From the NCBI GenBank assembly GCA_001773215.1, contig MEWB01000001.1, forward strand, positions 678,099 through 742,098: a stretch of DNA of 64,000 nucleotides. Direction: 5' to 3'. The position numbers were made by a program, and so were the translations under genes. The stretch is from a candidate division WWE3 bacterium RIFOXYC1_FULL_40_10. Lineage in GTDB: Bacteria; Patescibacteriota; WWE3; UBA101185; UBA10185. This document shows positions 33,621 through 34,394 of the stretch, piece by piece; within the stretch, counting starts at the first letter, position 1; each line of letters starts with the position of its first letter. The notes below the pieces were generated by a model. That model ran no database searches. It was not told the origin of the DNA and saw nothing but the letters and a program-made list of their open reading frames with translations.

Positions 33621-34394
33621 TTAATTCAGCGAGGGGTTAGCACTCAAAGCGTATCTTGCGTCAGTATATTTCCAAAACGCATCGGCACCACCAAGCTTTC
33701 CTGCACATTCCGCAGCCTCAGCTGACTTTTGAGCTGTGGCATGGAAATTTAAAGGATACTGTCTAAATACCCATGAAACATCACTATTTTCTTGGGTAAA
33801 GCTTGCCGCTGTGGGATGAAACCTTTGACAAAAGGGACATTCATAATCTGAGTACTCAATTAATGTAAACCTGGCTTTTTTATCACCTTTTACATAGTCT
33901 GTATCGGAAATAGCCTTTACCCCGGTTAACTCCTCTGCAGCATTGCCTTGCGCGTCAATTTTAGGAGGATAAACACCATTCTTTATGTCAGCCAACGCAG
34001 TCGTAAAGGTTGCAAGCGGATAGGCACCGGAAATTAAAAATGCCCTACCGGTAGTATTATCGTAAATTATGTTACCGGGTGTTCCGCTAACACCTGCCGC
34101 AGAACCTTCAGCCATCTCTTTTTTTACAGCTTCTGTCATTTCCCCGGAATTTAAGCAGGCTTGGAAAGCCTCTTTATTTAATCCAATACTTACAGCCAAA
34201 TCGGATAAAGATGTGGTAGCTTCGGTTGGTACAGCTGCTTGAGTAGGAACAGCTTCCGCAACCGTTTCAGGTACACTTTCTGCATCCTTACCCTTCCACA
34301 AACTCCCCGCATAAAACGAAACACCTGCCAAAACAGCAACAATAGCCAGTTGCACTATCGGAGCAAAGGGAAACACGTCTCTTTTGTCATTCAT
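33621..34394 (-). CDS. Membrane-anchored DsbA-like thiol:disulfide oxidoreductase with an apparently circularly permuted thioredoxin fold
   Basis: TM anchor, Pro/Ala/Thr linker, then FQACLNSGE...[16 protein letters not shown] (matches the C-terminal half of BdbD/DsbA including the cis-Pro GTP loop). This precedes [22 protein letters not shown]...FWKYTDARY (matches the N-terminal CxxC strand and the first half of the helical insert). The protein ends there. Confidence 0.55.
   Translation of the reverse strand: [257 protein letters not shown]

Follow-up and report, generated by a model that had tools for sequence, protein, structure and literature searches.

A 64,000-nucleotide stretch of the genome of candidate division WWE3 bacterium RIFOXYC1_FULL_40_10 (GenBank assembly GCA_001773215.1, contig MEWB01000001.1, positions 678,099 to 742,098; hereafter the window) carries, on its reverse strand at positions 33621-34394, a gene for a protein in which the two halves of a DsbA domain follow each other in swapped order. 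We conclude that this window protein is very probably a membrane-tethered, presumably extracytoplasmic oxidoreductase of the DsbA/BdbD type whose single catalytic domain is circularly permuted at the loop between helices 3 and 4. DsbA is the textbook catalyst of disulfide bonds and a classic subject of engineered circular permutation; random circular permutation of the E. coli enzyme by Hennecke, Sebbel and Glockshuber in 1999 is reportedly the source of the variant cpDsbA(Q100T99), represented in the Protein Data Bank (PDB) by entry 1UN2. A full-text literature search, outside which subscription journals lie, found only engineered permuted DsbAs and no natural one. In the accessible part of the CIRPIN survey of circular permutations (2026), DsbA is likewise cited only via the 1999 engineering paper.

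The open reading frame (ORF) is intact and runs from an ATG start through 257 codons to a stop. Its product is named 'hypothetical protein' of candidate division WWE3 bacterium RIFOXYC1_FULL_40_10 at NCBI (OGC60918.1) and 'Thioredoxin domain-containing protein' in UniRef. The gene, its parts and its immediate surroundings are laid out as follows, in order of transcription.

34400-34405 (-): Shine-Dalgarno-like GGAGGA, 5 nt upstream of the ATG, read from the sequence
33621-34394 (-): complete permuted DsbA ORF, identical to NCBI OGC60918.1 and others
34293-34361 (-): N-terminal transmembrane anchor, residues 12-34, placed by an AlphaFold2 helix (12-34), a hydrophobic-segment scan and its family-conserved position
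34215-34292 (-): flexible tether rich in Pro, Ala, Thr and Glu, residues 35-60, of low complexity and low predicted local distance difference test score (pLDDT)
33981-34214 (-): C-terminal DsbA half, placed first, residues 61-138, delimited by the Pfam, 4n30 and P0093 alignments and by DSSP
34155-34157 (-): Cys80 in helix 5, equivalent by alignment to Cys157 of Pseudomonas aeruginosa DsbA2 (PaDsbA2) and probable structural disulfide partner of Cys230
34077-34085 (-): cis-Pro loop Gly104-Thr105-Pro106 (GGA ACA CCC), from sequence and family conservation
33936-33980 (-): connector from the old C-terminus (alpha7) to the old N-terminus (before beta1), residues 139-153, 15 amino acids
33642-33935 (-): N-terminal DsbA half, placed last, residues 154-251, delimited by the Pfam, 4n30 and P0093 alignments and by DSSP
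33828-33839 (-): active site Cys186-Pro-Phe-Cys189 (TGT CCC TTT TGT), from sequence and family conservation
33705-33707 (-): Cys230 in helix 3, equivalent to PaDsbA2 Cys111 by alignment and conservation
33572-33594 (-): terminator-like hairpin with a 10-bp all-GC stem and a T-rich tail, z = -2.98

The half that stands first in the chain thus holds helices 4 and 5 of the helical insert, helix 6, the Thr-cisPro loop, beta4, beta5 and alpha7, and the half that stands last holds beta1, beta2, the CPFC motif with alpha1, beta3, and helices 2 and 3 of the insert.

Two Pfam profiles each recognize one half of the protein, and they do so in reverse order. The CxxC half of Thioredoxin_4 (PF13462, profile positions 3-84 of 165) aligns to residues 164-244 (E 2.1e-17; 64.3 bits against a curated cut-off of 23.2), and the C-terminal half of DSBA (PF01323, positions 101-190 of 191) aligns to residues 38-134 (E 2.8e-15; 57 bits against a curated cut-off of 25.6). 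A sequence search of the PDB gave the same picture: residues 39-134 of PaDsbA2 (4n30) correspond to residues 159-253 of the window protein, residues 151-211 to residues 74-133, and the halves of 3gyk are swapped in the same way. When a normal-order DsbA from Nomurabacteria (P0093) was used as the tblastn query against the whole window, its residues 77-168 matched 33911-33639 (59% identity, E 6e-36) and its residues 175-242 matched 34220-34014 (51% identity, E 7e-16), both in the frame of the window ORF. The same search found no further DsbA pieces in any frame of the window, and hence no normal-order domain in another frame. The ORF immediately downstream (32974-33567) has neither a Pfam match nor similarity to DsbA, and the domain is therefore not continued into it. 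A model reading the letters alone had proposed, in an earlier note, that the halves of the domain are reversed behind the transmembrane anchor, that all catalytic elements are nevertheless present and that the domain ends with the ORF. The three kinds of alignment bear this out, the CPFC motif (186-189) and Thr105-Pro106 are both in place, and all residue strings quoted in that note occur in the ORF; matches of this strength lie well outside what chance would give. A collinear match to DsbA was looked for and none was found; the alignments are complete but non-collinear, and the canonical linear order (beta1, CxxC-alpha1, beta3, insert, cis-Pro, beta4-beta5-alpha7) failed in every one of them. 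One other profile was set aside, namely that of the Rcas_1661 family thioredoxin-like (seleno)lipoproteins (NCBIfam NF041057), which scored 62.5 bits against a cut-off of 190 and matched partially, over residues 137-247 only.

The position of the cut can be read from a comparison with E. coli DsbA. Re-ordering the E. coli enzyme as residues 100-189 followed by 1-99 raised the score of its local alignment to the window protein from 53 in native order to 75, and the alignment then extended from the C-terminal half over the junction to the CPxC motif. Residue 59 of the window protein falls opposite E. coli Ser104, which places the natural cut in the same loop between helices 3 and 4 as that of the laboratory permutant.

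Structure prediction agrees with this reading. An AlphaFold2 model of the monomer, built from an alignment of 18 permuted sequences, has a mean pLDDT of 86.2 and a predicted template modelling score (pTM) of 0.74, with about 92-98 in the domain blocks and 78-89 in the connector. According to DSSP, the first half comprises H63-69, H74-83, H85-99, E107-112, E118-122 and H127-138, and the second half comprises E154-156, E176-182, H187-202 (which starts at CPFC), E206-212 and H221-251. The CxxC motif lies at the N-terminus of helix 187-202 and strand 107-112 follows directly after G104-T105-P106, so that every secondary-structure element of DsbA, from the thioredoxin fold to the inserted helical domain, is present in the model. 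The top match in a Foldseek search of the PDB was the engineered permutant 1UN2, with 203 aligned columns, a target-normalized TM-score of 0.63 and an E-value of 2.7e-5. Natural DsbAs (4n30 at 42% identity, BdbD, ScsC and BcfH) aligned over only about 85-98 columns at low root-mean-square deviation (rmsd), which corresponds to one half. A second natural permutant, P0058 of lineage B (introduced below), gave a comparable model (pLDDT 88.8, pTM 0.71), whose top match was again 1UN2 (197 columns, TM-score 0.61). The chain of 1UN2 consists of E. coli DsbA residues 100-189, a linker and residues 1-99; its 197 residues, against 189 in the native enzyme, leave about 8 for the linker. According to the title of the PDB entry, the engineered permuted DsbA(Q100T99) retains its global fold. 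In the prediction, then, the window protein is a whole DsbA domain in one chain, with its new termini in the helix 3/helix 4 loop and its old termini joined. The departure from the DsbA/BdbD class concerns connectivity, not fold or chemistry.

The likeness to 1UN2 is close in topology: both chains start at helix 4, end after helix 3 and join the old termini, the cuts lie in the same loop within a few residues of each other, and 1UN2 is the sole full-length structural match of both natural-permutant models. The differences are equally clear. The window protein is natural and evolved, recurs in many species, is only 13-16% identical to 1UN2 and carries an N-terminal membrane anchor; its connector of 15 amino acids (up to about 40 in the family) takes the place of a short synthetic linker; and, as a member of the PaDsbA2/BdbD-like branch, it has CPFC, Thr-cisPro and a predicted second disulfide across the cut. 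PaDsbA2 (4N30; an alpha-DsbA of 'subgroup 2') is the best sequence match in the PDB (E 9e-23; 42% identity over 91 Foldseek columns) and shares with the window protein the CPFC motif, the Thr before the cis-Pro and an extra pair of cysteines in the helical domain, but it is a soluble periplasmic protein of a diderm with canonical order, whereas the window protein is swapped and anchored in the membrane. Related as well are the anchored normal-order DsbAs of Patescibacteria (for example P0093, P0051 and L072), Thioredoxin_4 family proteins with the same layout of anchor, tether and domain and the same anchor motifs, which are 50-67% identical to permutants once these are re-ordered. They differ in the order of the halves, and the tether of the permutants joins helix 4 instead of beta1. 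Their characterized monoderm analogue is Bacillus subtilis BdbD (PDB 3EU3). By predicted fold and chemistry, the window protein is accordingly an enzyme of the DsbA/BdbD family and its PaDsbA2-like subgroup, for which only the canonical linear order failed.

The extra pair of cysteines deserves attention. In PaDsbA2, a Cys111-Cys157 disulfide links helices 3 and 5, and without it the redox potential of this enzyme, among the most oxidizing DsbAs known, shifts from -67.5 to -118 mV (PMC3870256). In the 4n30 alignment, Cys230 of the window protein stands opposite Cys111 and Cys80 opposite Cys157, which by analogy points to a Cys80-Cys230 disulfide tying the C-terminal helix 3 to helix 5. Because helix 3 is C-terminal and the relocated start of the domain precedes helix 5 by about 15 residues, such a bond would span the cut. 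This would offer a reason why this particular subgroup of DsbAs tolerates a cut at this particular site.

The permuted gene is neither confined to one assembly nor to one species. An identical protein of 257 amino acids is indexed in 46 blocks of a public sequence collection; 23 contigs carrying it, of up to 899,889 bp and taken from separate assemblies at ENA and JGI, were examined, and a cluster table places it on 21 contigs, the longest of 903,723 bp. We used hidden Markov models of the two half-domains to sort 206 proteins, among them ORFs found at the 80 best loci of GTDB species representatives. This yielded 51 permuted proteins (the window protein included), 145 in normal order and 10 tandems. 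Among the top 120 database homologues, 17 were permuted, 92 had normal order and 9 were two-domain tandems, and a permuted gene was present at 32 of the 80 best GTDB loci. The hosts comprise Peribacteria, Woesebacteria, WWE3, Colwell-, Nomura-, Kaiser- and Magasanikbacteria, Saccharibacteria, Paceibacterota and one metagenome-assembled genome (MAG) of Woesearchaeota. Seven loci (L008, L010, L013, L029, L045, L058 and L065) come from TPA_asm MAGs labelled 'uncultured Pseudomonadales' or 'Gammaproteobacteria', yet they encode anchored DsbAs of the type found in the candidate phyla radiation (CPR; Patescibacteria); their flanking genes are syntenic with Patescibacteria loci, and the taxonomic labels look doubtful. 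Public annotations of the family ('hypothetical', 'DsbA family', 'thioredoxin domain-containing') make no mention of a permutation.

All permuted proteins have one common layout, consisting of an anchor, a low-complexity tether, the C-terminal half, a connector, the N-terminal half and a stop codon, which falls 4-13 residues past the conserved Asp of the 'FWxYxD' helix. The connector measures about 17-40 amino acids in the family, against 15 in the window protein, and its length and sequence are lineage-specific. Pairwise identity among the 51 permuted proteins is only 32-45%, and the catalytic elements are kept throughout: once redundancy is removed, 49 permuted sequences remain, with active sites CPFC (42), CPYC (6) and CSYC (1); each of the 49 has GTP as its cis-Pro loop, and all four cysteines are retained in 48, with the single exception missing both helical cysteines. 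The helical pair is similarly retained in 116 of 117 normal-order sequences, and here too the exception lacks both. This conservation of CPxC, GTP and cysteines across 49 sequences indicates purifying selection on the catalytic elements rather than decay. The suggestion in the earlier note that the protein may be a functional natural permutant rather than a fragment is thus supported by the alignments, by the AlphaFold2 model with its match to 1UN2 over the whole domain, by the independent assemblies and by 50 further permuted homologues.

On this basis, we propose the following working model. The N-terminal anchor, through a flexible tether of about 25 residues, would hold the protein at the external surface of the membrane. 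Its hydrophobic helix 12-34 followed by the tether fits a signal anchor, a layout shared with its normal-order relatives and compatible with an extracytoplasmic location of the predicted oxidoreductase. The single chain would fold intramolecularly into an ordinary DsbA domain in which CPFC faces the Thr-cisPro loop, and would most likely act as a general oxidase, its CPFC disulfide oxidizing the cysteine pairs of proteins that are secreted or displayed at the surface. Where a normal-order enzyme is tethered through beta1, in the thioredoxin core, the permutant would be tethered through helix 4, in the helical insert, and its CxxC-bearing half comes last in the chain. Oxidase activity, substrates and intramolecular folding in vivo are inferred here, the first of them from the likeness to PaDsbA2.

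Several points weigh against this interpretation and temper it. The match to 1UN2 is moderate (TM-score 0.63, rmsd 4.8 Å), as expected at 16% identity, the PDB entries on which AlphaFold2 was trained contain DsbAs as well as 1UN2, and the alignment supplied to it held only 18 sequences. Folding, the cis-proline, the disulfide and redox activity are predictions only. Furthermore, a reoxidase of the DsbB or VKOR type was found neither in the window, which covers 64 kb of a genome of roughly 0.9 Mb, nor recurrently beside permuted genes. As a separate observation, a CxxC motif occurs in just one polytopic membrane protein of the window (61300-62520, -), which is of the Wzy_C, O-antigen ligase-like kind and not a VKOR or DsbB.

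That an assembly or frameshift artefact hides a normal-order gene is practically inconceivable: separate assemblies at ENA, JGI and NCBI carry the identical protein, on at least 23 contigs and with no sign of local mis-assembly, both halves share one frame with no other DsbA fragment in the window, and the same order recurs in 32 species-representative genomes. Decay of a tandem DsbA array, or of a pair of neighbouring dsbA genes, could leave a non-functional remnant, as both arrangements are common in related genomes and deletions in them would yield pieces with the C-terminal half first. We nevertheless regard decay as exceedingly unlikely, given an intact ORF with a Shine-Dalgarno-like site, the architecture, catalytic cysteines, Thr-Pro, structural cysteine pair and uniform ends kept in 51 divergent proteins, and the fact that in one lineage (B, introduced below) the permuted gene occupies the slot of the normal-order gene with no second dsbA-like match within 6 kb on either side. 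The order of the halves would also allow head-to-tail complementation between chains, so that the functional unit would be an intermolecular, domain-swapped dimer or oligomer on the membrane; our models were run as monomers only, and the pLDDT of the connector (block 78) is below that of both halves. We consider this arrangement very unlikely, since the connector is long enough to join the old termini, 1UN2 bridges the same gap with about 8 residues and a preserved fold according to its title, and the two monomer models, both confident, align with 1UN2 along the entire domain.

Alternatively, the protein could fold as described and yet not be an oxidase but a redox sensor, or a reductase or isomerase like ScsC, DsbC or CcmG. 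Such a role would accord with the lack of a nearby DsbB or VKOR, with the ScsC-type proteins among the sequence matches and with a TrxB-like gene that, at three loci (L010, 4723-5739; L045, 4952-5920; L058, 4652-5701), immediately precedes the permuted dsbA on its strand. The TrxB assignment is by sequence similarity only; at L045 the two genes overlap. The closest characterized relative, PaDsbA2, is, however, highly oxidizing and has the same CPFC, Thr-cisPro and second disulfide motif, the normal-order sister proteins share these motifs, and there is no dimerization or extra domain as in isomerases, which leaves a non-oxidase role quite unlikely. The earlier note had further named the protein as the likely oxidase of the adjacent cysteine-rich giant protein, encoded at 29075-32989 (-) with a TTG start. 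This protein of 1304 amino acids has no Pfam match, a predicted N-terminal hydrophobic segment and 80 cysteines (6.1%), 55 of them within its first 400 residues. Its gene lies on the same strand, 632 nt away, and the hydrophobic segment and the even number of cysteines would suit a substrate. A dedicated pairing does not hold up, though, and we judge it unlikely. At a syntenic homologous locus (L004), which has 11 neighbouring genes in common with the window, including the flanking gene for a GT2 glycosyltransferase, a 5'-nucleotidase gene lies downstream in place of the giant. Cysteine-rich neighbours are not enriched at permuted loci (7 of 34, against 10 of 47 for normal order). None of the neighbouring gene families recurs at more than 7 of the 34 permuted loci, and those met most often resemble housekeeping genes, as judged by eye from their sequences. 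Moreover, the strong hairpin at 33572-33594, a perfect GGGGCCCGCC-AGA-GGCGGGCCCC with an unusually stable fold, lies 26 nt past the dsbA stop codon and stands between the permuted dsbA on one side and the 197-aa ORF (32974-33567) and the giant gene on the other. The giant protein is therefore plausible as a substrate only in the generic sense that applies to any extracytoplasmic oxidase, and the reading we retain is that of a permuted, anchored DsbA of general function.

How such a family could have arisen is suggested by its normal-order relatives. Two N-terminal anchor motifs cross the boundary between the two orders: motif B (YSFxSF..NF..(TM)..GSLWTEN, where TM denotes the transmembrane segment) occurs in 10 permuted and 12 normal proteins, and motif C (N.WFG[VI][AS]M) in 9 permuted and 7 normal proteins. 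Using groups defined by this anchor alone, which lies outside the scored columns, we evaluated distance quartets of the re-ordered catalytic domain and found that 4399 of 4455 grouped proteins by anchor and only 9 by order of the halves. Taken half by half, the anchor grouping was recovered in 4454 of 4455 quartets for the C-terminal half and in 3109 of 4455 for the N-terminal half. Mean identities agree with this, at 56% between permuted and normal proteins of lineage B, 51% between those of lineage C and 41% between the permuted proteins of the two lineages. The permuted P0058 and the normal-order P0051, for example, have homologous anchors and are 67% identical after re-ordering.

Gene neighbourhoods point in the same direction. 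Four permuted loci (L006, L008, L012 and L016) have 5-8 flanking genes at matching offsets in common with the normal-order locus L072 (BroJett032, type-B anchor) and 4-7 flanking genes in common with L055, and lineage-C permuted loci have 2-3 downstream genes in common with normal-order L051, L066 and L082. Permuted and normal genes thus occupy the same syntenic slot, clearly in lineage B and partially in lineage C. Connectors differ between the lineages. Since anchors, quartets and synteny unite permuted and normal genes within two lineages, at least two origins are probable: the same permutation would have evolved independently by in-place rearrangement of an orthologous dsbA in different CPR lineages, possibly three or more times if the WWE3 lineage of the window is counted. 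A single origin of all permutants is disfavoured: in a neighbour-joining tree of the re-ordered domain, itself of low resolution, they formed a clade in 0 of 100 bootstraps. Two other ways of grouping were also abandoned, namely quartets with the nearest normal-order relatives, which were biased by the choice of sequences and, once cross-validated, kept a signal for lineage B only, and single-linkage clustering of anchors, which merged all of them through hydrophobic similarity.

The route may have led through tandem duplication of the catalytic domain, followed by loss of the first N-terminal half and truncation of the last C-terminal half. Two- and three-domain DsbA arrays are common, and the profile search was dominated by very long multi-domain proteins (P0121-P0268), for example P0121 (1163 amino acids, 8 matched stretches) and P0130 (1196 amino acids); up to 8 matched stretches were counted in the longest of them. 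In tandem DsbAs, the junction from the C-terminal half of one domain over a linker to the N-terminal half of the next is collinear with the whole permuted domain, as an alignment of P0002 (residues 136-318) showed. Because tandems are abundant and their junction is collinear with the permuted domain, duplication and trimming of both ends is the obvious route, which we infer to have been taken, probably in place, at least twice. Tandems differ from permutants in that they hold complete canonical domains, with about 372-539 amino acids for two domains among those classified (for example P0002 and the Woesearchaeota-annotated P0072) and about 560-640 for three. Adjacent dsbA paralogues are further raw material for fusion or duplication events; four loci (L041, L054, L082 and L083) hold such a pair, with two normal-order dsbA-like matches no more than a few kb apart on one strand.

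A number of points limit this reading. The WWE3 group of the window itself (the window protein, P0001, P0016-type proteins and L004/L005) is only 40-43% identical to all other groups, and none of the 47 normal-order loci shares two or more flanking genes with it. The neighbour-joining tree of the re-ordered domain has little resolution, and the inference of multiple origins was drawn from distance quartets, without likelihood topology tests. Full-length intermediates (anchor-C-N-C or anchor-N-C-N) were not found among the homologues; the sole intermediate-like cases (P0257, P0234 and P0237) start or end inside a domain or are of a completeness that is not demonstrable. None of the tandems compared was identifiable as the direct ancestor, in that the permuted halves are not consistently closer to the C-terminal half of domain 1 and the N-terminal half of domain 2. 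Piecewise gene conversion between paralogues would be an alternative to independent rearrangement, albeit a less parsimonious one. Beside these points stands the observation that the permuted proteins of L021 (a Woesearchaeota MAG) and L045 are closest (55-59% identity) to the domains of the tandems P0052 and P0099, and L021 also to those of P0102 and P0004; P0072 is a relative in this group. This hints at either a further separate origin or a transfer between DPANN archaea and CPR bacteria.

The surroundings of the gene add some detail on local organization. Upstream, the GT2 glycosyltransferase gene ends 34 nt before the ATG of the permuted dsbA. Downstream, the TTG start of the giant gene overlaps the end of the 197-aa ORF by 16 nt, which suggests that the giant gene is translationally coupled with this ORF rather than with dsbA. 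Further away, a gene for TsaE (35729-36151, -; 140 amino acids, strong Pfam match) overlaps a 105-aa ORF (35431-35748, -) with a weak, partial match to the TsaD/TsaB family, which may be a strongly reduced TsaB; the syntenic locus L004 has both genes too.

Beyond the observation in the earlier note, the permutation defines a widespread family, falls at a cut site chosen in the laboratory and seems to have originated in place more than once. A natural family cut in the loop of a crystallized laboratory permutant ties laboratory maps of fold tolerance to real evolution, and the helix 3-helix 5 disulfide may have pre-adapted this DsbA subgroup to the cut. As tandem arrays, normal-order positional orthologues and permuted genes coexist in related genomes, the family offers a tractable case of the origin of a permutation. 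Collinear profiles give half-length matches only, and annotation pipelines may therefore read the permutants as fragments or as two partial domains. The ultra-small CPR bacteria rely heavily on surface and secreted proteins, and the shift of the tether from the thioredoxin core to the helical insert could alter how the enzyme meets its substrates and its reoxidant. If true, the repeated origin would amount to a natural replicated experiment in the change of protein topology, with both orders still extant.

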